Below, piece after piece: positions 30,343-56,236 of a stretch of 64,000 bases of DNA. The position numbers and the translations under genes are program-made. Each line of letters starts with the position of its first letter. The stretch's first letter is position 1. The notes below the pieces were generated by a model that had not been told where the DNA came from, did no database searches, and was given only the letters and a program-made list of their open reading frames with translations. The stretch comes from Candidatus Aenigmatarchaeota archaeon (GTDB lineage Archaea; Aenigmatarchaeota; Aenigmatarchaeia; QMZP01; JAFGSV01), in NCBI GenBank assembly GCA_016934325.1, contig JAFGSV010000033.1:1959-65958 (forward strand), given 5' to 3'.

Positions 30343-30442
30343 GCCGGGGTGGCAGAATCTGGCCAATGCGCCCGCCTCGAATGAGGCTGAAGGGAAAGCG
30401 GGTGTCCTCACGGACGTGCAGGTTCAAATCCTGCCCCCGGCG
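30343..30442 (+). tRNA. tRNA-Ser(CGA) with ~15-nt intron at canonical position 37/38 (30382-30396)
   Basis: Acceptor GCCGGGG/CCCCGGC, discriminator G, anticodon stem CCCGC/GCGGG with loop CT-CGA-A|A, long variable arm GTCC-TCAC-GGAC, T-arm GCAGG-TTCAAAT-CCTGC. Confidence 0.9.
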
Positions 30443-30870: not shown

Positions 30871-31140
30871 TTACAGCAATCGCCTTTGTGGTGGCATGGG
30901 AAGGTTTCTGCAATCGCCACATATTGTCACTGCATATTCGATTTCATTCAATTCTTCCCCGTTCATGGTACTTTTTATCGCTTCAATGTCAATAATATTG
31001 GACCCGCTTATCCCGAGGACCTGTGCAATATATGTTCTCAACTGTGCATGATCGCTAAACGCAGGGATATCACCGCCACTCACAAATGCTACTGTGTTAT
31101 CTATTCCTATGCTTCCCATGCGACTTTGATAACCGCACAT
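30871..31140 (-). CDS. Possible hypothetical protein
   Basis: 89-aa ORF, plausible composition, no motif. Confidence 0.3.
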   Translation of the reverse strand: MCGYQSRMGSIGIDNTVAFVSGGDIPAFSDHAQLRTYIAQVLGISGSNIIDIEAIKSTMNGEELNEIEYAVTICGDCRNLPMPPQRRLL

Positions 31141-31293
31141 TTATTCACCACTTAGTAACTACATTATGATAATATTTTATAATCCCTCCTTAATAAAGAT
31201 TTGCATTGTCACAGTAGATGGAAATGACAGATTTGTCCAATAACGCCGTTATGAGCTTATGATGCTATTTAATTACGAAATTCAAAAGTACGT

Positions 31294-31923
31294 ATGTTCG
31301 TGACTCTCAATATCCGTGACTTGAAAAGCGGCAGGACCGGCAGATTCCCGTTGAAACCTCTTGAAAAGATTCTCCCGCTGGGAAAGACACCGGAGATAAT
31401 CGATGTTGATATAAAATACAGTCCTCCTTCGGGAAAGGTTCCAGGAGATATAATCAAAATTGATAAACCCGAAGTCTATTTTTACGGCACGCTGCTGATA
31501 AGGCTTTCATCAAAAGACAGAAGAGAGTTCATCAGAGAGATAGAGATAAGATTCGATAATAGTAAACACGACGGCACTGATATACACCTCAATTTGGATG
31601 AAATATACCGTCTGGGGAAGCACATAAAGGATAAATTGCCTCGAAGTGAAAAAATCGGCGAGTTTCATATGACTCCACTGGGTGATGATAAGACACCGAG
31701 AATGATAGATTTGACCGTGATTACTTCTTTTGGTAAGGGTACGCACATGAGAATTGGTTATTATCCCCACAAAGATGACATAATTATAGCCAAGGCTGTC
31801 AAAGACTTCATGGAAAAGGTAAAGCGAGGAACTTTAATCAAGCGTGATGAAAAACGAATGGAGGTTCTCAACAAGAAATATTACAAATCCTTCACGAGAC
31901 GTAAAGCGAATGAAGTGAAATAA
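31294..31923 (+). CDS. Hypothetical protein (209 aa)
   Basis: Long ORF in AT-rich DNA; no motif recognised. Confidence 0.6.
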   Translation: MFVTLNIRDLKSGRTGRFPLKPLEKILPLGKTPEIIDVDIKYSPPSGKVPGDIIKIDKPEVYFYGTLLIRLSSKDRREFIREIEIRFDNSKHDGTDIHLNLDEIYRLGKHIKDKLPRSEKIGEFHMTPLGDDKTPRMIDLTVITSFGKGTHMRIGYYPHKDDIIIAKAVKDFMEKVKRGTLIKRDEKRMEVLNKKYYKSFTRRKANEVK

Positions 31924-31953
31924 TGGTGGTAGAACTATCGTAAATCTGTAAAG

Positions 31954-32310
31954 TCAATGTTTACTCCAATAATCCCATACTCTCTTTATTTCATCGACCC
32001 AGAATCTATATCTTTGTCCCCATTTGTTGAAACACCCTAATTCAAACGCCAATTCAAAAAATCCATTGCCAGGCATTTTTGTGTCTTTTCTCACAACCAC
32101 AGCCGTAATTAGAAGACCTGTCTTTTTACGGTCTGCCCTGTTTATATCATCGAGAATTTTTCCTATTTCATGATATCTGTCATCTGGATTTTCATGCCCG
32201 AGACCCACAAGAGACATCAGTTCTTCATAATAGATTATACCCTTTATGTTATCAGATTTCCCTTTACGGGCAACTTCCTTTATTTTGTTGTAGATAACAT
32301 CATTTACCAT
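31954..32310 (-). CDS. Hypothetical small protein, putative nucleic-acid-binding domain
   Basis: YYEELMSLVG...EIGKILDDI...LITAVVVRK...PGNGFF pattern, HTH-like; family name not confidently recalled. Confidence 0.55.
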   Translation of the reverse strand: MVNDVIYNKIKEVARKGKSDNIKGIIYYEELMSLVGLGHENPDDRYHEIGKILDDINRADRKKTGLLITAVVVRKDTKMPGNGFFELAFELGCFNKWGQRYRFWVDEIKRVWDYWSKH

Positions 32311-32397
32311 TCATTTCATAGTTTTCGCAAAGACTAATAAAACCGACGTTTAAACGGTTTTGTAGAAATCATCAATAACAGCGTTACGAGACATTTA

Positions 32398-32811
32398 TTA
32401 CTTCTTCTTTGTCACTTTGTCAAATTCTTCGTCTACATTCCCCTCATATGCAACATCAGTAATTTTACTGATGTTAACGATTTGCTCTGCGAATATTAAA
32501 AATACACTCAACGCAACGAGTATTATGAGAAATATGTCCCCTAATGAAATCACTAAACCAGGGAAAACAACGTTGATTAACAAGTATGAATCAATTATTA
32601 TGCCTAGAACTAAAATACTCCCAATAAAAATTTGATAACGCATACCGCTTTTCAGTGCATTGTAATGTTGCTTATTTTTCTCAATGTGCTCAAAATTTTC
32701 AACTATTATCCTTCTAACGTTCTCCAAGGTCTGCAAATACTTGGTTGCAAGAAAAATAAGTATCGCCAATATGAAACTGTAGTATGTGGCGAGTACCTCT
32801 GCTCCAGCCAT
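32398..32811 (-). CDS. Hypothetical membrane protein (~3 TM)
   Basis: 137 aa, hydrophobic segments at the N-terminus and in the C-half. Confidence 0.55.
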   Translation of the reverse strand: MAGAEVLATYYSFILAILIFLATKYLQTLENVRRIIVENFEHIEKNKQHYNALKSGMRYQIFIGSILVLGIIIDSYLLINVVFPGLVISLGDIFLIILVALSVFLIFAEQIVNISKITDVAYEGNVDEEFDKVTKKK

Positions 32812-32885
32812 GATAAGTGAATGTTTTCTGGATTAAAAAGTTTCTCTATTAAAATTCGAACATGATATATCATTAGGATGACTTT

Positions 32886-33413
32886 ATGGAAAAAGTGAAG
32901 AAAGTGGGTTTGGATGATTTCATCGAAGAAAACCATAACCTTCTGACAGTTTTTGGGGTTTTTGCAGCATTGACAGCATTGTTCTCAAGAATAGGAGAAA
33001 GTGGAAATGATGTGATAACGATATCCATTTACATGGCATCAATGTCTTTTCTCATGCTGATTATGATAGCTTGGGTAATATGGACAAAATTTCCAAAAAG
33101 CGAGAAAGCAAGTGATACCATTAAGATATTCGAATTTCTTTACTTGGGTCTGCTTTTGTCAATGTCATTATTTGTTTTACTGACTTACAAAAATACAATC
33201 AAGTCATTTTCATTTCTTATCTTCTTTGCACTATATACCACTATAACTGTGAAACTTATTGGTCAAAGAGAGATTCCTAAGAAAGTCAGAAAACTGATGA
33301 AAAAACATAAGAAAATAAGAACATTTATTGCGGTTACGGTAGCTCTCATGTTCATACTGGTTGTATTCATATTAGCTCACTTCTCATCTCAGGCTTTCAA
33401 CCAATATTTTTAG
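32886..33413 (+). CDS. Hypothetical membrane protein (~5 TM)
   Basis: 175 aa with repeated hydrophobic stretches. Confidence 0.6.
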   Translation: MEKVKKVGLDDFIEENHNLLTVFGVFAALTALFSRIGESGNDVITISIYMASMSFLMLIMIAWVIWTKFPKSEKASDTIKIFEFLYLGLLLSMSLFVLLTYKNTIKSFSFLIFFALYTTITVKLIGQREIPKKVRKLMKKHKKIRTFIAVTVALMFILVVFILAHFSSQAFNQYF

Positions 33414-33486
33414 CCAGATATTCCGATAGTTTTATTATTCCTGTATCTAATTTATGAATAGTGGGCTACTGCCATAGCCCAGAAAG

Positions 33487-33870
33487 ATGTCGGTGATTGA
33501 TATAGACGGAATAGAATATAAATATATGTCTGTATATCAGGAGGAATTGAAGCACAAAGAATATTTAACGATCCTTCAGGCTGCAATAACGGTCATCATG
33601 ACATTTTTGGTGTTGTTAGCTATGGCGGTAATAACGAGTCCAGAAAGAATTGACGTAGGAACGATTTCACTGATAGGATTAGTCTCCGTAATGGGAATGA
33701 TAATAACGGTTCTACTAATACACTTTCTCGGTTTAAAACCCCTCCAAGAAAAAATACCGAAGAGGAAAGGTCAAGCATGGTCTATAATTCTCATTATTAT
33801 CATATTCCTAATACTTATTTTTCTGCTCGTTACATATGGTTCTTTGCCAGCATCAAGAACAACGCCTTGA
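33487..33870 (+). CDS. Hypothetical membrane protein (~3 TM)
   Basis: 127 aa with three hydrophobic stretches. Confidence 0.55.
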   Translation: MSVIDIDGIEYKYMSVYQEELKHKEYLTILQAAITVIMTFLVLLAMAVITSPERIDVGTISLIGLVSVMGMIITVLLIHFLGLKPLQEKIPKRKGQAWSIILIIIIFLILIFLLVTYGSLPASRTTP

Positions 33871-33971
33871 TTGCTTATAAATAAGTTATAAGGGGGATAT
33901 ATGATAAAATAAGGGTAAAGTATTTAAATATATAAGTTAAAAATATCCTATACATAATAAAAGGTACCCTT

Positions 33972-34943
33972 ATGGAATTAAAAATAAAAGTGACATCAAA
34001 AAATGTAAATGTCGTTGCCAGGTTCCTAAAAGAACTGGCATATGCAGACACATCAATTACACCTGTTCCTTCAGAAGAATCAGAAATTGAGGAAACAGCT
34101 AATTACATGACTAAAAATGATTTCAATTTAAAGGATTCTCTTCTTAAAAAACCTGAAAAACCTGAAATTACTTTATCGGGCGATATAGTTAAAAATGAAA
34201 CCACAACAGAAGTTGGAAATTGGGGTCTTTTTAATAGCTTTTTTCCCATAAAGGCGGTTCTTAGAGTTTTGATAAATAGAGAAAATGAGAATGAGAAATC
34301 TTTGACTTTAAGAGAATTGGTTGAAATATGCAGAATCGAATTTTCAAAAGGCAACCTTAGAAAACTGAGAGGTTTGCCCAGTAATTTAAGTAAAGAGAGT
34401 TCTATTGGTAGGCTTGTTTGGCATTTCATTGGACCAGCTCGGGAAATGGGATTCATTGTTATTGAAGGTGAAGTCAAGGGAGAAAAAGTTGATTATATTC
34501 CAATTTCGGATAAGGATTGGAATAAGGTTAGATTATTCCCAACGAAGGATGGTGCAAAATTTGCATTACTGGAAAATAACGTTTTTGATAAAGGTAGTAG
34601 CGATCAGGTTCTTACTATTGAAGAGAGGAAATGGTTAATGGATTATCTGAAAAAAATAGAAAAGAGGGGTCATAAAGAATTCACTATATTGAAAAAAGTT
34701 TTCGAATTCCTTTCTTCTGGACATGATGGTAAAGAGGATTTGAGGAGTTGGTTTAGAAATAACTCGGCTTTTTTAAATTATATTAAGAAGTCATCTTCCA
34801 AAAGCGGAGAAGCCCTGAATAATCAGCTAGATAATTTGTCAATTACATTCGCTGCAAGTAAATTGGCTTTGCTTAGAGAATTTGGTCTTGTTAGTAATAA
34901 AAGAGGTGACTATTCAATAATTGGTGATTTGAATGAGCTTTAA
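33972..34943 (+). CDS. Hypothetical protein (323 aa), possible tandem winged-helix DNA-binding protein
   Basis: AT-rich promoter upstream; LTLRELVEI, AREMGFI and C-terminal LLREFGLV..KRGDYSI resemble wHTH elements; overlaps next gene by 11 nt. Confidence 0.6.
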   Translation: MELKIKVTSKNVNVVARFLKELAYADTSITPVPSEESEIEETANYMTKNDFNLKDSLLKKPEKPEITLSGDIVKNETTTEVGNWGLFNSFFPIKAVLRVLINRENENEKSLTLRELVEICRIEFSKGNLRKLRGLPSNLSKESSIGRLVWHFIGPAREMGFIVIEGEVKGEKVDYIPISDKDWNKVRLFPTKDGAKFALLENNVFDKGSSDQVLTIEERKWLMDYLKKIEKRGHKEFTILKKVFEFLSSGHDGKEDLRSWFRNNSAFLNYIKKSSSKSGEALNNQLDNLSITFAASKLALLREFGLVSNKRGDYSIIGDLNEL

Positions 34944-37254
34944 AGATGACGAAGTTGATATAGAGAGAGGAGAAATAAAATTTCATACATTTGGAACTCT
35001 CAAATCACTAACTCAGTGGGTTAATACACATGAAGATGGATTTCCAGAATGGATTAAAAATGTTAGATCTGCATATTGCAGATTAAATCTTCCAGAAAAA
35101 CATAGAGCTGCTGTAATTCTTATCAAGGATAAAGACAATTTAGGTCCAGCAAGATTAGGCATTTTAGATGTTGGGGGAGCTACTGAAGAAGATGTAAATT
35201 ATTGGTCTGTTTGGCAAGATCCCGATGCTTCTTCGAGAGGGGGACAAAAAAAGGAAGAAACACAAGGCAATGGTGGGAAAGCGTATATGTACAAGCTTTT
35301 CAACGGTCCTTCGTACTTTATGGGTGTAAATAATAACATTGTAAATCGGATAGGATTTATCGGTGAACATGCTTCACTTGATAGAGGAAATCCTGGTTAT
35401 ATTCCAAGTGAAAAGGAAGCGAAAAATTTCAAAATATCTGATTGGGAAGATTTATTGATTTTTGAATTACAGAAATTTGGAACAAACATAGCGGAATTAC
35501 CCACTGAAGTGAAAGATATTATTTTTGATAGAAAATCTTATACTATCGTCAATGGAAGCGAACCAAGAGATTGGAACCAAAAAGATATTAAATTTTTTCT
35601 GAAAAAAATATCCAGACAATCACAATCAGTTCTTGCTCTGAATCAAGTGAGATTTTATGTTTTACATAATGGAAGGCTTTTGAATGAGGGTAAACCCTTA
35701 AAACTTGAAGAAATTGAACCGCACCCTAAATTTAAAGATCCAATCATCTATGAAATACCAAAAATTGTACTAAAAAAGGATGGAAATCAGGTTAATACGA
35801 CCAAATCATCATCTGGGATACATAAACTTGGGCGTATCATTCTATACACATCGAAAGAAAATATGTCAGCATCCTATGTAACTTTGAAACCCAGATGGGT
35901 GGTTACTTATAAAACCCAATATGAAGTTGTTGGGCAAAAAACAATTCCTGAAATTATTTCTGCACCTGGTATTCATTTTATTTATGCTGTTGTTGAACTC
36001 GACGCTTTGAGTCCAGATTATGTAAATTTAGGTAGAAAGAGACCAAATCCAGGATCTCTTATTGATGCTGTAGACCAATTTCTATCTGAAAAGATACGTG
36101 ACTTGGCAAAAGAAATAAATGAATTGAATAAAGAGGAGCTTAGTAAACTATTCTTAGATGAAATCCAAAAAGAAAATAAATATCTCAATGAAATAAAAAA
36201 TCGTTTTTTGCCTAAAGGTGGACTACTTGAAGTGGTAGATACAGAGGGTGATGGTGAAGGTTCGAAAAATAAGAAAAAGGTGAAACCAATAAAATGGGGC
36301 AAAGATGTACATAAAATTGAAACTCAATCATATGCTCTAAAAATTGGTGTTTCAGTACCTGTTAATCTAAAGGTATTATTGAAACCAAGTGCAAAGGATT
36401 TGCACGATAACCCAATCCCATCACCAAACTGGGAATGGAAATCTGATAATAAAAATATAATTGAAATTGACAATGATGGTAATTGCATACCAAAATCCAA
36501 AGGTTCTTGTAGAATTTGGGTATCGATACCAAAAACAAGTGCAATATCAGCACCAATAGAAGTGGAAGTTTGGAAAATCAAAGAGATAATTTTATCGCCA
36601 AGAAATTTAGAAATTAGTACTGGTTCTATCAAAATGATTACAGCCCAAGTTACAAATGATGAAGGAGAGAAATCTGCTGATGTAATATTAAAATGGAAAC
36701 ATGATGCAGAAAATGAGCGAATTGTAAAAATTAGTCCTAGAGGGTACGTATTTGGAAATTCTGTAGGAAAAACGAACGTTTTTGCTGAATCAGAAGTTTC
36801 ATGTACAAATCCTTGTGAAGTAGAAATCGTAAAGGGGGAGAATAAAGAAGGCAAAGGGAGTGGAGTCCCTCAACTACTGCTTACTGAAAAGGACATAGAT
36901 CCATTTACAGGTGAAATAAGACCCAGTGACCCAGAAGCAGCTGCACTATGGCAAGAACCTTGGGATGTTCAAAATAACATATGGTGGTTGAATTTGCAGA
37001 GCAAAGATGCATCGTTTGCTTATAGGAATATAAAAGAAAATCCGCATTTATGGAGATTGTTTCATGCAAAAATTCTTGTCGATATGATGATTCAGGTACA
37101 TATGCAAGAAGAGTATAATAAAAAAATTCAGGAAAAGGCTTACTGGTCTGACCATAAATATTTTTATGATAGAAAATATGTTGAGCTGTGTCAAGTTATG
37201 TGGGAAAAATTAAGTCAATACGTTCAGTTCGGAATGGAGGAAGGAAATGACTGA
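34933..37254 (+). CDS. GHKL (Hsp90/MORC-like) ATPase with two C-terminal Ig-like (Big_2-type) repeats
   Basis: Bergerat-fold motifs EWIKNVRSAY (N-box), ILDVGG (G1), QGNGGK (G2); two repeats WEWKSDNKNIIEIDNDG..IPKSKGSCRIWV and LKWKHD..RIVKISPRG.VFGNSVGKTNVFA. No signal peptide. Confidence 0.65.
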   Translation: MSFKDDEVDIERGEIKFHTFGTLKSLTQWVNTHEDGFPEWIKNVRSAYCRLNLPEKHRAAVILIKDKDNLGPARLGILDVGGATEEDVNYWSVWQDPDASSRGGQKKEETQGNGGKAYMYKLFNGPSYFMGVNNNIVNRIGFIGEHASLDRGNPGYIPSEKEAKNFKISDWEDLLIFELQKFGTNIAELPTEVKDIIFDRKSYTIVNGSEPRDWNQKDIKFFLKKISRQSQSVLALNQVRFYVLHNGRLLNEGKPLKLEEIEPHPKFKDPIIYEIPKIVLKKDGNQVNTTKSSSGIHKLGRIILYTSKENMSASYVTLKPRWVVTYKTQYEVVGQKTIPEIISAPGIHFIYAVVELDALSPDYVNLGRKRPNPGSLIDAVDQFLSEKIRDLAKEINELNKEELSKLFLDEIQKENKYLNEIKNRFLPKGGLLEVVDTEGDGEGSKNKKKVKPIKWGKDVHKIETQSYALKIGVSVPVNLKVLLKPSAKDLHDNPIPSPNWEWKSDNKNIIEIDNDGNCIPKSKGSCRIWVSIPKTSAISAPIEVEVWKIKEIILSPRNLEISTGSIKMITAQVTNDEGEKSADVILKWKHDAENERIVKISPRGYVFGNSVGKTNVFAESEVSCTNPCEVEIVKGENKEGKGSGVPQLLLTEKDIDPFTGEIRPSDPEAAALWQEPWDVQNNIWWLNLQSKDASFAYRNIKENPHLWRLFHAKILVDMMIQVHMQEEYNKKIQEKAYWSDHKYFYDRKYVELCQVMWEKLSQYVQFGMEEGND

Positions 37255-37981
37255 TAAACAACAGTTAACTTTGAATGAAAAAGTACTATTAGCTGCATTT
37301 GCATTACAAAAAGGTGATATTAAAAATAAATTTACAGCTGAAGACCTTCTCGTTGAAGTGTGGCAGCAAGATAAAGGTGCATTTGGTTTGAGAAATTATG
37401 AGAACAAATATCCAGATTCAAATAAATTATTCACAAAATTAGATGGGAAAGGTGGACTGGTTAGGAAAGGTTTATTGAAAAAAGTTTCAGAAAGAACATA
37501 TATATTAACTCCAGCTGGAATGTCTCTATCAAATTCAATAAGACCTGTTGACGAAATAACTACAACAAAGGTTAATAGAGAGCTTTATGAAGAGATTAAA
37601 AAAATCATTAATCATCCAATTTTCTCTGAATGGCTAAAAGATTCAAATAAGCCCGAAAAATTCAGAGATGCCGGTTGGTTTTGGGGTATTGCACCAGGAA
37701 ATCCCCCAAGTATTGTAGCAGAAAGGTTAGCGAATATAGAACAAAATTTGATTGAGGCTAAGAAAAAAACTGCTGAATGCGGAGGGAAGCTTGTATTAGA
37801 TACTAGGGGTATGGATCAAAATGTTAAACTTGCTCTTACAACAAAGGGTAACGCAAATATCGACAGTGATAAATCGAAGATTTATCTGGATTCCAAGGAC
37901 ATAAATAAATGTATAGAATTTCACGAATTGCTAAAAAAACGGTTTGAAAAAGAGTTAAGTATTATGCTGAAGAAAAAATGA
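37247..37981 (+). CDS. Hypothetical protein with N-terminal winged-helix domain (244 aa)
   Basis: FTAEDLLVEVW...GLVRKGLLKKVSERTYILTPAG wHTH wing pattern; overlaps upstream gene by 8 nt; stop abuts MTase stop. Confidence 0.6.
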   Translation: MTDKQQLTLNEKVLLAAFALQKGDIKNKFTAEDLLVEVWQQDKGAFGLRNYENKYPDSNKLFTKLDGKGGLVRKGLLKKVSERTYILTPAGMSLSNSIRPVDEITTTKVNRELYEEIKKIINHPIFSEWLKDSNKPEKFRDAGWFWGIAPGNPPSIVAERLANIEQNLIEAKKKTAECGGKLVLDTRGMDQNVKLALTTKGNANIDSDKSKIYLDSKDINKCIEFHELLKKRFEKELSIMLKKK

Positions 37982-39112
37982 TTATTTCTTTAGAACAAGT
38001 ATTCTGTCAACTTTTGTGGCATTCCCCCTTTTTTCTCCCCATATTCTTGATACTTTCGGGTTTCCATTATTTTCATCGTAAATAACATCATTGATTATGT
38101 CTTCAACTTTAGAAAATCCTATTTCTTTAGCACATCTCTCCCATACGCTTTCCGCTAAATTGATGGTGTCTGTGGATTCTTTCTTTTTTACATCTCCTAT
38201 TACAAGTACAGCTTTCCCTTCGGGTTTTAGTACCCTTTCAAATTCTCGAAGAACATCATTCATGAAGTTACAATATTTATCAATAGATTGGGTCACGAAT
38301 AGTTTTTTATCCACTTCTACACCATCTTTTCCAAGAAACCATAACCTAATCCAGTTGAATGTTCCATAAGTAATTAAACGAGTATATGGAGGTGAAGTTA
38401 CAATTAAATCAACAGAGGAATCCTTTATACGACTCATATTCCTTGCATCCTGCATGTATATCTTTCCTTTATTACTACATTTTTGGTAGCATCTTTCTAG
38501 TTTTTCATTCAGGATTCTGAAAACATCCCTTTTCGGTTTTCTGAGATGATGCTCTTTTATGTAATTCTTCACGTAATTGGGTGACATCGAAAATGTGTTG
38601 GGCATTTGAATAGAAAGATAACCCTTTGAGCCACCGTGCATTATTCCGAGAACCATTGCCGTGATAAAGATGTCTACATTACTTTTCTTCCATTTCAATT
38701 CCTTTTTGAGATACACGAGCTGGTTTAATGTATACTCACCAAAAATCATTTTGATTTTCTTATCAACATGCTTTGTGTCTATCTCTTCTTTTTTGTAATT
38801 TTCCTTTAAGCTTTTAATCCTACTTATTATTCTCCCTTTCTGAGGCACAGAAGCCTTCGATCTCGAAAGTACTGCTGCTAATATATTTCTATCATTTCCT
38901 ATCGCTTTTCTTTCAAGAAGACAACCTTCCAGAACCGTAGTTCCCCTGCCAGAAAATGGATCTAATACTAAATCACCCTTTTTCGAATATTTATCAATGA
39001 AGTAATTCGGAATTGATGGTGGATACATTGCCATATAACTACATATGGAATGTAATTTGTTTCCCATATTTTTCGGATATATCTTCCATTCAGGACAATT
39101 TATTTCTCCCAT
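37982..39112 (-). CDS. Amino-DNA methyltransferase (likely N4-cytosine; motif I before motif IV, alpha-type order)
   Basis: VLDPFSGRGTT (motif I) near N-terminus, DLIVTSPPY (motif IV) later; LHSICSYMAMYPP N-terminal block; GGAGTAGT SD-like upstream. Confidence 0.88.
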   Translation of the reverse strand: MGEINCPEWKIYPKNMGNKLHSICSYMAMYPPSIPNYFIDKYSKKGDLVLDPFSGRGTTVLEGCLLERKAIGNDRNILAAVLSRSKASVPQKGRIISRIKSLKENYKKEEIDTKHVDKKIKMIFGEYTLNQLVYLKKELKWKKSNVDIFITAMVLGIMHGGSKGYLSIQMPNTFSMSPNYVKNYIKEHHLRKPKRDVFRILNEKLERCYQKCSNKGKIYMQDARNMSRIKDSSVDLIVTSPPYTRLITYGTFNWIRLWFLGKDGVEVDKKLFVTQSIDKYCNFMNDVLREFERVLKPEGKAVLVIGDVKKKESTDTINLAESVWERCAKEIGFSKVEDIINDVIYDENNGNPKVSRIWGEKRGNATKVDRILVLKK

Positions 39113-39125
39113 ACTACTCCCTATT

Positions 39126-39335
39126 TCAAAAAGTATAATCGATTCTTATTTTCCAATACTTTTTGTTCCCGATTTTTTTTGTCACCACATATTTTCTTTT
39201 ATGCAATTGCTCCAAGTTTTTGTTTGTAGTTGCCCAGGACGTACCAGTTTTTTTTGTCATCTGAGTTGTTGTAAGTGGTCGTGAAGCATTGTATAAAATA
39301 TTCAATATTTTTCTTTCAATATCCGTGAAAGGCAA
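39126..39335 (-). CDS. Small winged-HTH transcriptional regulator (controller-like)
   Basis: IERKILNIL...LTTTQMTKKTGTSWATTNKNLEQL.KRKYV; TTG start 5 nt after upstream stop. Confidence 0.7.
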   Translation of the reverse strand: MPFTDIERKILNILYNASRPLTTTQMTKKTGTSWATTNKNLEQLHKRKYVVTKKIGNKKYWKIRIDYTF

Positions 39336-39340
39336 CCTAC

Positions 39341-39631
39341 TTATCGATTTTCTTGAAGATATTCTATTTTTAATGTTTTTTCACCCCTTTCATTCGGCAA
39401 AATCTTTAAAGTAAATTTTACTTTATCGTCCTTTGTAATTTTCATTGTTTCAGATATTTCTTTAGGAAATCTTATCAGATATTGACTACCATCATAAACT
39501 ACTTTCCTCGTTTTTTCTATGATTTCTGGTTCTGGTTCAATAATTTTTTTAATTTGTTCGGGAATTGTAGAGTAATCTGTATTGAAAAATTCTTTATCAT
39601 CCTGACTGACTTTATTTTTTTTCTTTACCAT
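39341..39631 (-). CDS. AbrB/MazE-like DNA-binding protein
   Basis: RKVVYDGSQYLIRFPKEISETMKITKDDKVKF swapped-hairpin pattern. Confidence 0.7.
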   Translation of the reverse strand: MVKKKNKVSQDDKEFFNTDYSTIPEQIKKIIEPEPEIIEKTRKVVYDGSQYLIRFPKEISETMKITKDDKVKFTLKILPNERGEKTLKIEYLQENR

Positions 39632-39644
39632 AATTAATATATGA

Positions 39645-39761
39645 TTCGTACTATTTATATAAATTTCGTACTATTTTTACTAAATTTTACGATTGGTGAG
39701 TGATAAACGTACGAAAAACGATAACTTTATAAATATGTACACCAAATAATAATCGTACGAA
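39645..39761. repeat. Four TTCGTAC motifs (two direct, two inverted) and five GTAC cores upstream of the AbrB-wHTH-MTase operon
   Basis: TTCGTACTATTT at 39645-39656 and 39665-39676; GTACGAA at 39709-39715 and 39755-39761; extra GTAC at 39737-39740. Confidence 0.75.
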
Positions 39762-39780
39762 TATTATTCATAATATTTTC

Positions 39781-39815
39781 CAAAGGGGGAGAAAGTTAGA
39801 GCCTTTCCCCCTTTG
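39781..39815. other. Hairpin CAAAGGGGG...CCCCCTTTG immediately upstream of the transposase
   Basis: 9-bp perfect outer stem plus inner AAAG/CTTT pairing. Confidence 0.55.
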
Positions 39816-39829
39816 GGTGGAGTATCCGT

Positions 39830-41410
39830 ATGCAGGAAGACACCACAATTAAGGAATTGAAGGATGAGATTAATAAGCTTTTCAGTCAGATGGGAGAATA
39901 CCCACTCGACCTTGCGGTATTCCTTTCACGGTTGAGACTTGAGCCAATCCGTGGGCTAATCGATAATAGGTACAGTGTTAGTGAAAAGGATGGACGCATG
40001 AAGCATAATCCCATGTCCATAATAAAGGCACTTATGCTGAAGGATTTGCGTGGCATAAAGCATTATTCCCAGCTTCTGAATCGTCTGTCAAGGCATCCTG
40101 AAGAGGCGGAAATTCTGGGATTCAATACGAAGATGACTAGGCAGTCAATGAGCGTTTTCACCTTGGGAAAGCTCACTCAGGAAATCGAAGACCTCATCGT
40201 GGTTGCAGTGGATCATATAAGAGATAAGGCGAAAGAGACTGGAAAGCTTCTGGATGTCTATTTCTTGGATGAAAGCGGTACATACAAAGGAAAGTCTACT
40301 CGGACCATCGAAAGAAGGAAGAGCGAAAAGTCGGGCGAGGTTGTCAGAGTGCTGAAAAGAGAGATATTCCCGAATCTCGACTTTCCCCTCAAGTCGAAAG
40401 CCAAGTATGATAAAATGCACTTTCTTGATCTGCTGGCTTATGTCGCATACGAGAACGTGTGTGCAAATCAAGGCTCGAAGCTGATGAAGGAAGACGCCAA
40501 TTTCAACGGCAGAGTTCCCCATTCCAGGACGCTTATGGGCTACTTGAAACTTCTTGACAAGCGTGAGATAGAGCTAATGTTCATCAATTCTTTCGAAAAA
40601 GTGTTCAAGATAGCTAAGATGCAGGGATTCTTCAACAGGGAAGTCGACGTGGCGATAGACTTCACGGACTGGCTGTACTACGGCGACAAGAACGATCTCG
40701 GAGTCATGGAAGGTCAGACCAAGCAGGGAACGTCCCACAGGTTCAGGTTCGCCACCATCAAGATAGTCGAAAAAAACAACGATTTCGTCCTGATGGCATT
40801 ACCCGTGTTCAAGTTCAGCGATAGAAGGGAAGTAGCGAAAAGACTCATAAATTACGCCAATTCGAAGGTGAACGTGAGGTACTTCTACGTCGACAGGGAG
40901 TTCTTCTCCTCCACCTTCATAAGCCTCTTCGAAGAACTCGGAATAAAGTACATAATGCCAGCCATCAAGAACGAGAAGGTGGTGAAGCTTATCGAGAACC
41001 GCAAGTCGGATTTCATAGCCTACACGTTCACTGGAACGGCGAGGAAGTATGACGCCAAGATGACGCTCGTCGTGAGGAAGGATGAGGAGGGAAAGGACGT
41101 CTGTTTCGCTACGAACGTCCCCATCCTGAGATTAGTATGGTCGAACCTTTTCGAGCTTTACGGAAAGAGATGGGGCATAGAGACCGCATACAGGGTCGCA
41201 AAGCACGAGTTCCGACCCAACACTACGTCCAAGAACCACAAGATAAGGCTCTATTATTTCCTGTTCTCATCGCTGCTTTACAACATCTGGGTAATCGTGA
41301 ACTCCATAGTCAGCGTCTACCTGTTCAGGGAAGTCGTGGATTACAGGGTCATAACGGCGAAGCTGTTCATGAAGAAGTTCTACCAAGCTTATACGGAAAC
41401 CATCACTTAG
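39830..41410 (+). mobile_element. DDE transposase, IS4 superfamily / ISH3-like, with N-terminal extension
   Basis: VDVAIDFTD (D1), FYVDREFFS (D2), YGKRWGIETAYR (YREK/E) intact; 526 aa. No terminal inverted repeats identified. Confidence 0.85.
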
Positions 41411-52381: not shown

Positions 52382-55135
52382 GTGTTCCATACGGCGAAGC
52401 CGAACATAGCCCAAAAGAAGCTGCTTGCCCTCATCAAGAAGCTGGCGGCGATCAGGGGCAGGCATACCGAGCTCATAACCATCTACGTCCCGGCCGGCTC
52501 GAACCTGAACATAGTGGCCGACCAGGTCAAGCAGGAGCAGGGCACGGCGTCGAACATAAAGTCCAAGACCGTGAGGAAGAACGTGCTCGGGGCGCTCGAG
52601 AAGATAAACCAGCACCTCAAGCACTACAGGCAGACGCCCCCCAACGGCCTGGCCCTGTTCTGCGGCAACGTGAGCGAAAAGGAGGGGGAGAGCGACCTTG
52701 AGCTGTGGGCGTTCGAGCCCCCGGAGAGGCTGAACCAGAGGCTGTACAGGTGCGACCAGGAGTTCGTCCTTGACCCGCTTGCGCACATGGTCAGGGAGAG
52801 GGAGATATACGGCCTCGTCGTGCTGGACAAATCCGAGGCGGAGATTGGCACCCTGAAGGGCAAGCGGGTGGAATCGCTCAAGCATCTGGAGTCCCTCGTC
52901 CCGGGAAAGACGAAGAAGGGGGGCTGGTGCGTGCATGAGGATACCCTGATACAACTGGCTGACGGGAGAATCGAAAAGGTTAAAGATCTGAAGGATGACG
53001 AGTTTCTATGTTACGATTTCAATAAGCTGGGAGTTGCTCCCGGAAGACATGCCCACTTCTTTTCAAGGAATTCCGACGATGCGTTGAGAATAAGAACATC
53101 CGCGCCTACGTCGGAGATAGTCGTAACTCCTGAGCATAAGTTCTTCATAGCGAATGAAGACGGTTTCGGAACGAAGGATGCCGCCGATATCAGGCCGGGC
53201 GATCGGCTTCTTGCGGTGAAATCGCTCGCAATAAATGGCGTGAAGATAAACATCGACGTAAAGCTACCATTTAGATATCAGATTACGGAGAAAGGTCTGC
53301 GACATCTCGTGAAAAGAAGGGAGGAGCTAGGATTATATCAATGGATGGTAGCAAGAAGGGTTGGGATATCCCAAACCGCCATCTCGAAACTCGAGCTTGG
53401 TGAAAGAACGCTGAAATTGGCTAATTTGAACAAGATATTAGACATGTACGGGATTGGGAAATCGGAATTCTTCGATAATTTCGTAATCAAGGAAAATAAG
53501 CTGGATTTCACGCCTGAATTGAACCGGGACCTTGCTCAGCTGCTTGGATACATGCTTGGGGATGGGAACAGGGATAAGAACAGAATAACATTTTCTGAAA
53601 GGGAATTGCCGACATTGAAGATATATGAGAGAATGGTTCAGCGGCTATTCTCCATCAGCGCCAGAATAAAACCGAGGGTGGGGAAAGGCTATTACGAAAT
53701 GAGGATTCACAATAAATTCATACTTTCCCTGATCGAAAGGGAGTTCCCCGGCATATTGACACCTTGCAGAAAGGACATCCCCGATAACGTCTGCAAATCA
53801 AGAAAACCCGAACTTGGGGGGTTCATCAGGGGCTTGTTTGATGCCGAAGGCTGGATCGACAAGAAAGCGAAGATTCTGGGCATAACCATGAACAACAGGG
53901 AAGTCATCAATAAAGTTCGGCTGATCCTTCTGAGGTGGGGCATAGTGTCCTCATTGAGAGAAGTCAAACGGAAAGGGAGCTTTGCCAGGAAGATGCGTTA
54001 TAATCTGAGAATCACAGATGCGGAATCATTGAGGGAGTATTCGAAGAGTATAGGATTTTCCTCCGCTAGGAAGAGGAAAGAACTCATAGGTGTAGTCGTA
54101 AAGTCAAATGTTTCATATGTAGACCAAATCCCTATCAGCGGTCGGCATCTTCTAAATTTGGTCCATAAGCTGGGATTAACGACGGGGGATTTTCCCAAGG
54201 TTCAGGATTTCTTTTACGACAGAAAGGGCATGAGCTATAGAATTTTCAAAAAGAACATTTATGACATTGTTAGAAGGAAGTTTTCCGGGAGCAATGAATC
54301 TGAAGAATTAAGTTATATGAAAAGCATCTTGGACTCGGATATGATATCGGTCGTAGTGAAGTCTGTTGATGCCGTGAAGACGAATAGGCCTTTTTATGAC
54401 ATGCATGTTCCCGGTTTTAATAGCTTCATAGCAAACGGTTTCGTATTGCACAATTCCCAGGCAAGGTACGCCAGGGTCAGGGAGGGATTGCTGAACGACC
54501 ATATGAAGAAGACCGGGGAAATCGCCACGTCATATTTCAGGGAGATGCGGGACCTGAAGGGGATAATAATCGGTGGGCCCGGCCCGATAAAGGACATGTT
54601 CTTCAACGGCGGCTTCCTGCCGACGGACGTGAAGTCGAAGGTCTTGGGCGTGGTTGACACCTCCTACACCGGCAAGTTCGGGCTCAATGAGATTCTGGAA
54701 AGGGGGGAGGACATCCTCGCCGAGGCGTCCGTTACCGCCGAGAGGAAGCTGCTCGAGAGGTTCTTCTCGGAGCTGGCGAAGGATTCCGGCCTTGGGGTCT
54801 ACGGCCTCAAAGAGACCATGAAGGCCCTCGAGTCAGGGGCCGTGGAGATACTGCTGGTATCAGAGTCCTTCGACTGGGTCCACGCTCAGCTCGAGTGCCC
54901 GTCATGCGGCGCCAAGCTGGAGAGGATGGTCAGGCGCGACAGGCTGGATTCCGTCAAGTGCCCCAAGTGCGGGGCGTCGATGGAAGCCGGGCAAGAAGAG
55001 GACGCCATTGAGAAGCTGGCGGATGCGGCGGAGAAGGTGGATACCACGCTGGAGATAGTCTCCGTGGATACGAGGGAAGGCGAGCAGCTCTTCGAGATGG
55101 GCGGCATAGCCGGTATACTGCGGTACAGGGTCTAG
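52382..55135 (+). CDS. prf1: Peptide chain release factor aRF1 precursor containing an intein (predicted spliced product 408 aa)
   Basis: RGRHTELITIYVP, TASNIKS, YRCDQEF, spliced GKTKKGGW|SQARYAR, GPGP.K, C-domain with zinc ribbon, GGIAGILRY. Confidence 0.93.
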   Translation: MFHTAKPNIAQKKLLALIKKLAAIRGRHTELITIYVPAGSNLNIVADQVKQEQGTASNIKSKTVRKNVLGALEKINQHLKHYRQTPPNGLALFCGNVSEKEGESDLELWAFEPPERLNQRLYRCDQEFVLDPLAHMVREREIYGLVVLDKSEAEIGTLKGKRVESLKHLESLVPGKTKKGGWCVHEDTLIQLADGRIEKVKDLKDDEFLCYDFNKLGVAPGRHAHFFSRNSDDALRIRTSAPTSEIVVTPEHKFFIANEDGFGTKDAADIRPGDRLLAVKSLAINGVKINIDVKLPFRYQITEKGLRHLVKRREELGLYQWMVARRVGISQTAISKLELGERTLKLANLNKILDMYGIGKSEFFDNFVIKENKLDFTPELNRDLAQLLGYMLGDGNRDKNRITFSERELPTLKIYERMVQRLFSISARIKPRVGKGYYEMRIHNKFILSLIEREFPGILTPCRKDIPDNVCKSRKPELGGFIRGLFDAEGWIDKKAKILGITMNNREVINKVRLILLRWGIVSSLREVKRKGSFARKMRYNLRITDAESLREYSKSIGFSSARKRKELIGVVVKSNVSYVDQIPISGRHLLNLVHKLGLTTGDFPKVQDFFYDRKGMSYRIFKKNIYDIVRRKFSGSNESEELSYMKSILDSDMISVVVKSVDAVKTNRPFYDMHVPGFNSFIANGFVLHNSQARYARVREGLLNDHMKKTGEIATSYFREMRDLKGIIIGGPGPIKDMFFNGGFLPTDVKSKVLGVVDTSYTGKFGLNEILERGEDILAEASVTAERKLLERFFSELAKDSGLGVYGLKETMKALESGAVEILLVSESFDWVHAQLECPSCGAKLERMVRRDRLDSVKCPKCGASMEAGQEEDAIEKLADAAEKVDTTLEIVSVDTREGEQLFEMGGIAGILRYRV
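52928..54454 (+). mobile_element. Intein (509 aa) with LAGLIDADG homing endonuclease and XRE-type HTH
   Basis: Cys1 (CVHEDT), block B TPEH, LLGYMLGDG and FIRGLFDAEG, block F/G FYDMHV...FIANGFVLHN followed by Ser+1; visibly lower GC than exteins. Confidence 0.93.
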
Positions 55136-55693: not shown

Positions 55694-56236
55694 ATGTCTA
55701 TAAAAATAGACAAACTGATGAATTTGTTTCTGGAAGACTCCTATAGCGAGTTCAATCTGAGGGAAGTCGCAAGAATTGCAAAGTTAAATCCAATGACTGC
55801 TTCAAAATATCTTAAATATCTCTTGAAGGAGTCTGTAATTAAAAAGAGGCCGGAGAGAAATTTCATCCTGTTTTCTGCAGATACAGAAAGTGAGAGATTC
55901 AAGGATATGAAAAGGTGCTTCAATATAAAAAAAATCAGATCATCAGGACTTGTGGAATATATAGAGAAAGAGCTTAGCTATCCAGAGGTGATAATCCTTT
56001 TTGGATCCTATGCGAAGGCAGAGAACAGTGCAGAAAGCGACATAGACATTTTTATTCTTTCCGAGTCGAATAAGAAGCTGGACCTGTCGGTATTTGAATC
56101 AAGAATCGGAGCGGAGATTCAGATTTTCAAACATTCAAGGAAGGAGTTCGATGCAATGAAGAGGGACAACAAAGAGCTTCTGAACAACATATTGAACGGG
56201 GTCTGTTTGAGCGGTTTTTTAGAGGTTTTCAAATGA
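55694..56236 (+). CDS. MNT-type nucleotidyltransferase with N-terminal HTH (putative antitoxin)
   Basis: FNLREVARIAKLNPMTASKYL HTH; IILFGSYAKAE...SDIDI Pol-beta motif. Confidence 0.85.
   Translation: MSIKIDKLMNLFLEDSYSEFNLREVARIAKLNPMTASKYLKYLLKESVIKKRPERNFILFSADTESERFKDMKRCFNIKKIRSSGLVEYIEKELSYPEVIILFGSYAKAENSAESDIDIFILSESNKKLDLSVFESRIGAEIQIFKHSRKEFDAMKRDNKELLNNILNGVCLSGFLEVFK

Follow-up and report, generated by a model that had tools for sequence, protein, structure and literature searches.

Whether an archaeal class-I release factor can terminate translation without the glutamine (Gln) of its GGQ motif is the question raised by one gene in a 64,000-nucleotide stretch of DNA from a Candidatus Aenigmatarchaeota archaeon (contig JAFGSV010000033.1), referred to here as the window. 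The gene is an open reading frame (ORF) at positions 52382-55135 of the forward strand, and its translation is a 917-amino-acid (aa) precursor of archaeal release factor 1 (aRF1) that carries an intein; the predicted spliced aRF1 has 408 aa and reads GKTKKGGW-SQARYAR at the catalytic loop, the hyphen marking the splice point. To our knowledge, GGQ is the textbook motif of all class-I release factors, whether from bacteria, archaea, or eukaryotes, and its Gln is methylated in each of these. The role of the Gln side chain and of its methyl group is still debated. Overall, it appears quite probable that the GGW aRF1 is an orthologous, functional general class-I release factor, apparently the only one of its host, with an alternative catalytic loop.

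The Pfam domains found in the precursor are eRF1_1, eRF1_2, eRF1_3, Intein_splicing, LAGLIDADG_3, and HTH_3, each above its cut-off; the three eRF1 domains score 50.4, 106.2, and 92.4 bits against cut-offs of 23.8, 27.1, and 25.8. The parts of the gene are as follows.

52382..52927, forward strand: aRF1 N-extein, residues 1-182, the N domain and the start of the M domain, ending in K-K-G-G-W (Pfam eRF1_1 and eRF1_2, translation)
52544..52564, forward strand: TASNIKS stop-codon recognition motif, residues 55-61, with N58, I59, K60, and S61 invariant in a 45-sequence alignment
52745..52765, forward strand: YRCDQEF (YxCxxxF) stop-codon recognition motif, residues 122-128, with Y122, C124, Q126, and F128 invariant in the same alignment
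52919..52927, forward strand: GGG GGC TGG, encoding G180, G181, and W182 at the GGQ site, the Trp codon being 52925-52927 (DNA, gapless alignment)
52928..54454, forward strand: class-1 intein of 509 aa, between W182 and S183 (Pfam Intein_splicing 58.7 bits, motifs, intein-free orthologues, GC)
54455..55135, forward strand: aRF1 C-extein with its TAG stop; it supplies spliced residues 183-408, completing the M domain and forming the C domain (Pfam eRF1_2, eRF1_3, Zn_ribbon)

A sequence-only reading of this stretch had reported the GGW-SQ loop after removal of the intein, intact TASNIKS and YRCDQEF motifs, and a normal spliced length of 408 aa. The loop is borne out by the DNA, the translation, and intein-free orthologues, and the motifs and the length were likewise confirmed. 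When compared with solved structures by phmmer, the spliced protein matches Halobacterium aRF1 (4af1) from end to end (E 7e-82, residues 16-407), and W182 is aligned, in a gapless loop, to the Gln of GGQ in both 4af1 and human eRF1 (1dt9). The tip of the M domain thus carries GGW in place of the GGQ tripeptide, with the two glycines retained. The AlphaFold model of the spliced protein (predicted local distance difference test, pLDDT, 82.4) has the eRF1 fold; with this model Foldseek finds 4af1 at E 2e-40 and a template modelling (TM) score of 0.66, and accommodated eRF1 in termination complexes (5lzu, 5lzv, and 3jag) at TM 0.63-0.66, 5lzv and 3jag reaching 0.66. Residues 177-182 are disordered in the model, and a long helix runs from residue 184.

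In its three-domain fold, NIKS and YxCxxxF motifs, and single copy, the protein resembles canonical aRF1 and eRF1 (4af1, 3agk, 1dt9, 5lzu, and 3jag). It also shares with them the two glycines, the Ser and Arg that follow the motif, and a C-domain zinc ribbon as in 4af1 (CPSC...CPKC, at 54896-54970). It is unlike them in having Trp for the motif Gln, Gln for Ala or Ser two residues further on (+2), and Tyr for Phe at +5, as well as in the absence of the methyltransferase Mtq2 and in the presence of an intein at the motif.

The Trp codon adjoins a run of six G, and one rival explanation is an artefact, in which GGW would stem from faulty sequencing or assembly, or GGQ would be restored by splicing at a non-canonical junction. 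The DNA at the N side of the junction reads aag aag ggg ggc TGG / tgc gtg cat gag and that at the C side gta ttg cac aat / tcc cag gca agg tac, giving K-K-G-G-W / C1...H-N / S-Q-A-R-Y in the protein. The C-extein then begins S183-Q184-A-R-Y187-A-R, S183 being the intein +1 nucleophile. Intein-free orthologues, 82-88% identical, show GKTKKGGWSQARYARVREGLL at the same place, which is the predicted joined sequence. Because they carry exactly this sequence, the canonical splice junction is validated, and alternative junctions restoring GGQ, which the sequence-only reading had named as a possible refutation, are excluded by orthologues that read GGWSQARYAR. As to an error in the codon itself, a change from TGG to CAR takes at least two substitutions (two for CAG), and the identical TGG pattern occurs in 74 aRF1 genes from independently assembled genomes. 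An artefact can be given next to no chance, and the Gln-less aRF1 appears to be neither an error nor a product of misplaced splice sites.

GGW is found well beyond this one gene. Among the 120 closest database homologues, 116 have GGW (98 GGWSQ, 17 GGWSAN or GGWSAS, and one with an intein), which, together with the position of W182 on the Gln of 4af1, answers the alignment to other archaeal aRF1s that had been proposed as a check. Almost every aRF1 gene in 40 genomes from the host's order likewise has GGW, with or without an intein, and the 74 genes mentioned above came from a codon-level scan of 371 genomes of the phylum for the pattern GG-TGG-S..R[FY]. When the third codon was left free, the site proved variable within the phylum. 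Many families have GGQ, while GGW is the state of the window's order and of parts of families f18, f22, and f33; GGM occurs in f19-f22, GGF in f17, and GGA in one f18 genus; these tallies were combined by hand from several outputs, and the GGQ and GGM counts are to be read as 'at least'. When 1.8 billion proteins were represented by clusters at 50% identity, the loop could be read in 114 representatives, of which 23 lack the Gln and have W, M, F, one S, or one E instead. Rare states seen at the site are GGA-SQ in one f18 protein (L075, genome G107) and, among P0212 and P0240, GGS followed by an intein and GGE-SQ. Outside the phylum, an aRF1 with GGWSQRRFERL (L123, PWMI01000075.1) is present in a metagenome-assembled genome (MAG) labelled Candidatus Iainarchaeum; it may have arisen independently, have been transferred, or lie on a contig that was mis-binned.

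Within the 45-sequence alignment, in which identity goes down to 57%, G180, G181, S183, R186, and R189 are invariant and W182 is conserved in at least 90%. The GGW state of the loop thus appears to be inherited and under selection across the whole order. Full-text literature searches, including those on Aenigmarchaeota and DPANN, found no description of a GGW or otherwise Gln-less aRF1. The nearest published case is that of Burroughs and Aravind 2019, in which GGxSQ is described in VLRF1 families.

If the loop is real, the next question is whether another factor does the work. In the host MAG (1.24 Mb, 35 contigs, 79% complete), ORFs of 250 codons or more end in TGA in 573 cases, in TAG in 222, and in TAA in 213, which confirms the earlier claim that all three stop codons are in use; the aRF1 gene itself stops at TAG and the EF-2 gene just upstream at TGA. 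Since all three end long ORFs, a general release factor is needed, and the GGW aRF1 is the only candidate. The sequence-only reading had allowed for a specialised paralogue, acting in rescue or tRNA cleavage, with a true GGQ aRF1 elsewhere, and such a gene could lie in the unassembled part of a MAG that is 79% complete. However, no second aRF1-like gene was found in the MAG, and 41 relatives of the order (22 of them at least 90% complete) have one aRF1 each, their other full-length matches being only ORFs of 334-374 aa, the length of Pelota. The eight of these that were read are ordinary Pelota genes and have neither a GGQ-like nor a GG-x loop, so the suggested genome-wide search for a second aRF1 or a Pelota with GGQ came back empty. 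The retention of NIKS, YxCxxxF, the three-domain layout, and the zinc ribbon also argues against a specialised paralogue, as does the aRF1 tree, on which the protein branches within the phylum's GGQ aRF1s, the placement expected of an orthologue (single copy; the order's clade has a support of 98 in the Shimodaira-Hasegawa-like approximate likelihood ratio test, SH-aLRT). A specialised paralogue is therefore highly improbable. The single-factor case, like the absence of Mtq2, rests on the relatives because the MAG is incomplete. Termination without the canonical Gln in this lineage, one of the two possibilities raised before, is supported by the order-wide GGW and the single aRF1 per genome, and would follow if the conserved loop is active.

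Other hydrolases were also sought. The bacterial RF-1 domain (PF00472) was absent from 26 genomes, with a positive control in 10 bacterial genomes, and searches of the host genome and its family turned up neither a VLRF1-like nor a bacterial RF-type hydrolase. Pelota was not found in the host MAG either. Two candidates were set aside: a weak eRF1_3 match on contig C26, considered as Pelota, resembles a tRNA-thiolation-type ATPase in its sequence, and matches to the pattern 'GGQREHRYDR', considered as a second GGQ protein, appear by sequence to be aspartyl-tRNA synthetase. Pelota/Dom34 belongs to the same superfamily and acts in the ribosomal A site without the GGQ Gln; the GGW aRF1 is unlike it in retaining a GG-x loop and the NIKS domain, both of which Pelota lacks.

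A further line of evidence comes from the enzyme that modifies the Gln. In Haloferax, HvoMtq2 methylates the GGQ Gln of aRF1 in vivo, and Mtq2 orthologues were stated to occur in all archaea (PMC6144793). In the phylum, the NCBIfam model TIGR00537 (HemK2/MTQ2) scored above its cut-off in 127 of 371 genomes. In a tally combined by hand from the matches listed, a true Mtq2 with the NPPY motif occurs in none of the 139 Gln-less genomes read, the host genome included, and in 45 of the 57 GGQ genomes read. Another five of the 57 likely have Mtq2, as full-length NPPY proteins just below the cut-off or cut by a contig end, and the remaining seven without Mtq2 among the matches listed are 58-87% complete. 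The same is seen inside the window's order, where six genomes of GGQ genera (G030, G314; G311, G312, G021, G318) have NPPY proteins of 190-230 aa with a full-length TIGR00537 match; in the seventh GGQ genome of the order (G321), which is only 58% complete, no Mtq2 was seen. For GGW genera of the same GTDB family as the order's GGQ genera, the TIGR00537 search gave no Mtq2. The best match in the host genome to a profile of the phylum's Mtq2 reaches 31 bits and the best to TIGR00537 an E of 2e-6, and the sole NPPY ORF of this genome is KsgA. The N5-methylation by Mtq2 that is a feature of the family has no Gln to act on in this protein.

Some HemK-superfamily matches in GGW genomes were not counted as Mtq2. 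Those above the cut-off, L109 (G026) and L110 (G087), are paralogues of 382-384 aa with extra N- and C-terminal regions, in which WNGPT replaces NPPY, and matches of 80-85 bits, L111 (G016), L112 (G339), and L113 (G313), are proteins of 230-256 aa with NLPF, NVPF, or NPPF that form a separate paralogue clade. The Mtq2 proteins of the window's order form one cluster on a tree (SH-aLRT 92), and this clustering fits vertical retention. Genome G068 of family f10, which measures about 0.5 Mb and is 87% complete, combines a GGQ aRF1 with the absence of an Mtq2 match, and G067 of that family is also without Mtq2. Across the genomes compared, Mtq2 is shown as apparently lost wherever the Gln is lost, and the loss of Mtq2 may precede, and perhaps permit, that of the Gln.

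What else changes in the protein when the Gln is lost was examined by aligning 75 aRF1s of the phylum (20 GGQ and 55 Gln-less) and ranking every column by how well it separates the two groups, both overall and within the window's order. The +2 column has A or S in 19 of 20 GGQ proteins and Q in 48 of 55 Gln-less ones versus 1 of 20 with GGQ; the +5 column has F in 19 of 20 GGQ proteins and Y in 48 of 55 Gln-less ones versus 1 of 20. These two are the sole strong co-variants with the loss of Gln, and no other aRF1 column comes close. The AlphaFold model puts both residues, Q184 and Y187, in the opening turn of the helix after the loop. The two loop states in these alignments are GG-Q-S-(A/S)-x-R-F and GG-(W/M/F/A)-S-Q-x-R-Y.

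The Gln at +2 recalls a register shift, which had been suggested for this loop from the start: Q184 would replace the canonical Gln and be indispensable, as in the GGxSQ loop of VLRF1, with the Trp as a mere spacer. The VLRF1 lead itself holds. The GGW aRF1 resembles the VLRF1/Vms1-like family (PF18859) in its loop type (GGxSQ or GxuQ, here G-G-W-S-Q), GGxSQ / GxuQ being the motif given for aVLRF-1 and acVLRF-1 (Burroughs and Aravind 2019, PMC6514570), and VLRF1-like ORFs of the phylum carry GGFSQGRFER and, in one case, GGWSQGRFAR. It is unlike VLRF1 in having the NIKS/YxCxxxF decoding domain, which is absent from VLRF1 proteins, in being an aRF1 orthologue, and in its loop, which keeps the unchanged aRF1 length while VLRF1 loops are described as longer (PMC6514570). 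The eRF1 domains far outscore PF18859 (acVLRF1), of which the match is marginal (27.2 bits versus a cut-off of 27.1, with no single stretch passing on E-value and the best being residues 146-182). The VLRF1-like proteins of the phylum (L053, L055, and L065, from genomes G297, G303, and G133) have about 330 aa, PF18859, and an N-terminal coiled-coil; in family f39 such proteins occur alongside a normal GGQ aRF1.

The idea of a register shift stands in so far as the co-variation of the +2 Gln is strong, and fails in that this Gln is not universal. Loops of the form GGWSAN or GGWSAS, which hold no Gln at all, are those of 17 of the 116 close GGW homologues and come from single-aRF1 genomes, including G014 (95% complete), G016 (96%), and G022 (93%), in each of which the search gave a single aRF1 and, beyond it, no more than a match of Pelota length. 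Therefore, the +2 Gln cannot be indispensable. Moreover, a +2 Gln occurs without any shift in ordinary archaeal aRF1s, since 13 of 62 intein-free GGQ cluster representatives read GGQSQ. A register shift in the strict sense is thus somewhat unlikely.

To follow the history of the loop, an aRF1 tree was computed with the loop columns removed. On it the GGQ families branch at the base, and all Gln-less proteins fall, together with the seven GGQ proteins of the window's order, in one clade (SH-aLRT 83); of the 55 Gln-less proteins on the tree, 48 have GGW and the rest M, F, or A. The free tree needs at least three changes between Q and non-Q. A tree constrained to unite the order's 43 GGW rows was not rejected by the approximately unbiased test (p-AU 0.53), and therefore a single change from Q to W within the order is enough, with the genera that keep GGQ and Mtq2 as early branches. 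When all 55 Gln-less rows of the phylum were held as one clade, the tree lost 47 log-likelihood units and was rejected at the borderline (p-AU 0.0498), from which at least two origins of Gln loss in the phylum, plus the Iainarchaeota case, are likely.

A possible working scheme for a GGW aRF1 can be described as follows. The intein would splice out of the precursor exactly at the catalytic loop, and the mature factor would decode stop codons in the ordinary way through NIKS and YxCxxxF. The invariant glycines G180 and G181 would still bring the loop into the peptidyl-transferase centre, where the backbone NH of residue 182 may be the main driver of ester hydrolysis, in the role proposed for the backbone amide of the Gln in bacterial factors. 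A hydrophobic side chain (W, M, or F) would occupy the pocket of the methylated Gln side chain, and Gln184 and Tyr187 would probably give polar groups that help to position the water. Work on GGQ Gln mutants of RF1/RF2 and eRF1, reportedly by Shaw and Green in 2007, Korostelev in 2008, Santos in 2013, and Seit-Nebi in 2001, is said to have led to the view that the backbone amide of the Gln, not its side chain, is catalytic, which is what a working GGW factor would require. Those mutants were engineered and mostly unfit; the GGW loop, unlike them, is natural and fixed in a lineage, with co-varying neighbours and the modifying enzyme lost. For bacterial release factors, catalysis by the backbone amide of the Gln has been proposed (PMC6742477).

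In a wider form, which is put forward tentatively and stands a little short of probable, GG-[W/M/F]-S-Q-x-R-Y would be a second natural design of the aRF1 loop. A hydrophobic residue would take the place of the methylated Gln, an amide and a hydroxyl would be shifted to the first turn of the next helix, and Mtq2 would become dispensable. This design would be convergent on the GGxSQ of VLRF1 and would have arisen at least twice (window's order, f17-f22, Iainarchaeota MAG).

Several points weigh against a functional GGW factor. Replacing the GGQ Gln is lethal or severely harmful to E. coli and yeast, and we infer the activity of the GGW loop from conservation alone. With the MAG 79% complete, the absence of a second factor or of Mtq2 from this one genome is weak evidence, and 23S rRNA, the site of the presumed Trp pocket, was not found in the MAG (RF02540). 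The state of the Gln and the presence of Mtq2 offer only two or three phylogenetically independent contrasts, all in the expected direction, which is too small a number for statistics. Finally, a few GGQ genomes are without Mtq2 (family f10, e.g. G068), which means that the two losses were not strictly simultaneous.

Another explanation is that the protein is a decoder dead in hydrolysis, which reads stop codons and recruits ABCE1 to split the ribosome, while another enzyme cleaves the peptidyl-tRNA in a Pelota/Dom34-like manner, off the ribosome or on the 50S subunit. The reduced and unusual genomes of DPANN, the ability of the GGQ-less family member Pelota to act on ribosomes, and the general knowledge that Gln substitutions are lethal in model organisms all lend it some plausibility. 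However, the loop is not decaying, as its five invariant residues and W182 (at least 90%) indicate, and in Pelota of the same genomes it is absent altogether. The replacements are limited to W, M, F, and A and co-vary with two loop neighbours, which is the mark of a constrained functional site, and the host genome and its family gave no VLRF1-like or bacterial RF-type hydrolase that could act in its stead. Such a dead decoder is considered improbable, and an active GGW aRF1 is preferred.

The absence of Mtq2 together with the loss of Gln and the co-variation of +2 and +5 are newly seen here. The GGW order contradicts the published universality of GGQ and of archaeal Mtq2 orthologues (PMC6144793). 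The disappearance of Mtq2 in step with the Gln gives independent evidence, from the genomes, for a functional rather than a cosmetic change, and the swap of three residues, Q-A-F to W-Q-Y, is transferable to tractable aRF1 or eRF1. If the reading of an active GGW aRF1 is true, neither the Gln side chain nor its methylation would be mechanistically essential for termination, and the Gln-less aRF1s would serve as natural mutants for probing the role of the Gln. For annotation, checks based on the motif would mislabel Gln-less aRF1 genes as inactive.

The intein at the catalytic loop has the class-1 signature, namely C183, TPEH in block B at 249-252, HN at 690-691, and S692 in precursor numbering. 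Its parts are listed below.

53126-53137, forward strand: intein block B, TPEH (motif reading)
53312..53467, forward strand: HTH_3 (Cro/C1-type) DNA-binding domain inside the intein (PF01381, 35.6 bits, precursor residues 311-362)
53540..54055, forward strand: LAGLIDADG homing-endonuclease region (Pfam LAGLIDADG_3, PF14528, 73.8 bits)
53540-53569, forward strand: LAGLIDADG motif 1, LLGYMLGDGN, acidic residue retained
53822-53851, forward strand: LAGLIDADG motif 2, FIRGLFDAEG, acidic residue retained
54449-54454, forward strand: terminal His-Asn of the intein (motif reading)

With its Cys1, TxxH, His-Asn, +1 Ser, and two LAGLIDADG motifs, it is like the class-1 LAGLIDADG inteins at archaeal active sites, and like them it sits at the most conserved site of its host and is patchy among close relatives (4 of 14 genomes in the window's family have it). 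It is unlike them in its additional Cro/C1 HTH domain and in the residue at -1, a Trp here where relatives have Gln, Met, Phe, or Ser. The same site, with a Cys-initial insertion directly after GGX, is filled in 44 of the 114 aRF1 cluster representatives, from diverse uncultured archaea; the hosts include GGQ, GGW, GGM, GGF, and GGS loops, and the insertions comprise mini forms of 135-157 aa and large forms of about 500 aa. Large inteins at this site in relatives have 492-510 aa, close to the length of the HTH_3-bearing one here. Those in GGW hosts begin with CVHED and are 40-47% identical to it, and those in GGQ hosts begin with CL(A/S)xDT and are 30-34% identical; in the hosts compared, inteins are more diverged than exteins. 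The GC content of the intein is 0.44 versus 0.61 in the exteins, and at third codon positions 0.53 versus 0.84-0.90. A recent horizontal arrival was considered from this low GC, which is not evidence for it, since the intein is lower in GC than the exteins in all the hosts examined. The full-text literature searches turned up no description of an intein in aRF1.

Directly downstream of the aRF1 gene, at 55694-56233, lies a gene for a small nucleotidyltransferase-domain protein (Pol-beta/NTP_transf_2 fold) with a winged-helix-like N-terminus, of the MNT/HEPN-partner kind. Elsewhere in the window, positions 31000-41400 form a low-GC island, at 0.33-0.34 versus about 0.58 in the surrounding DNA. 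It lies just downstream of a tRNA gene at 30343-30442 and has the following contents.

33936-37978: three large ORFs without a Pfam match
37985-39145, reverse strand: N6/N4 DNA methylase
39800-41407, forward strand: DDE transposase

The island is probably an integrated mobile element. The tRNA gene is 100 nucleotides long, matches Rfam with 47 bits, and was missed by ARAGORN; it may contain an intron.

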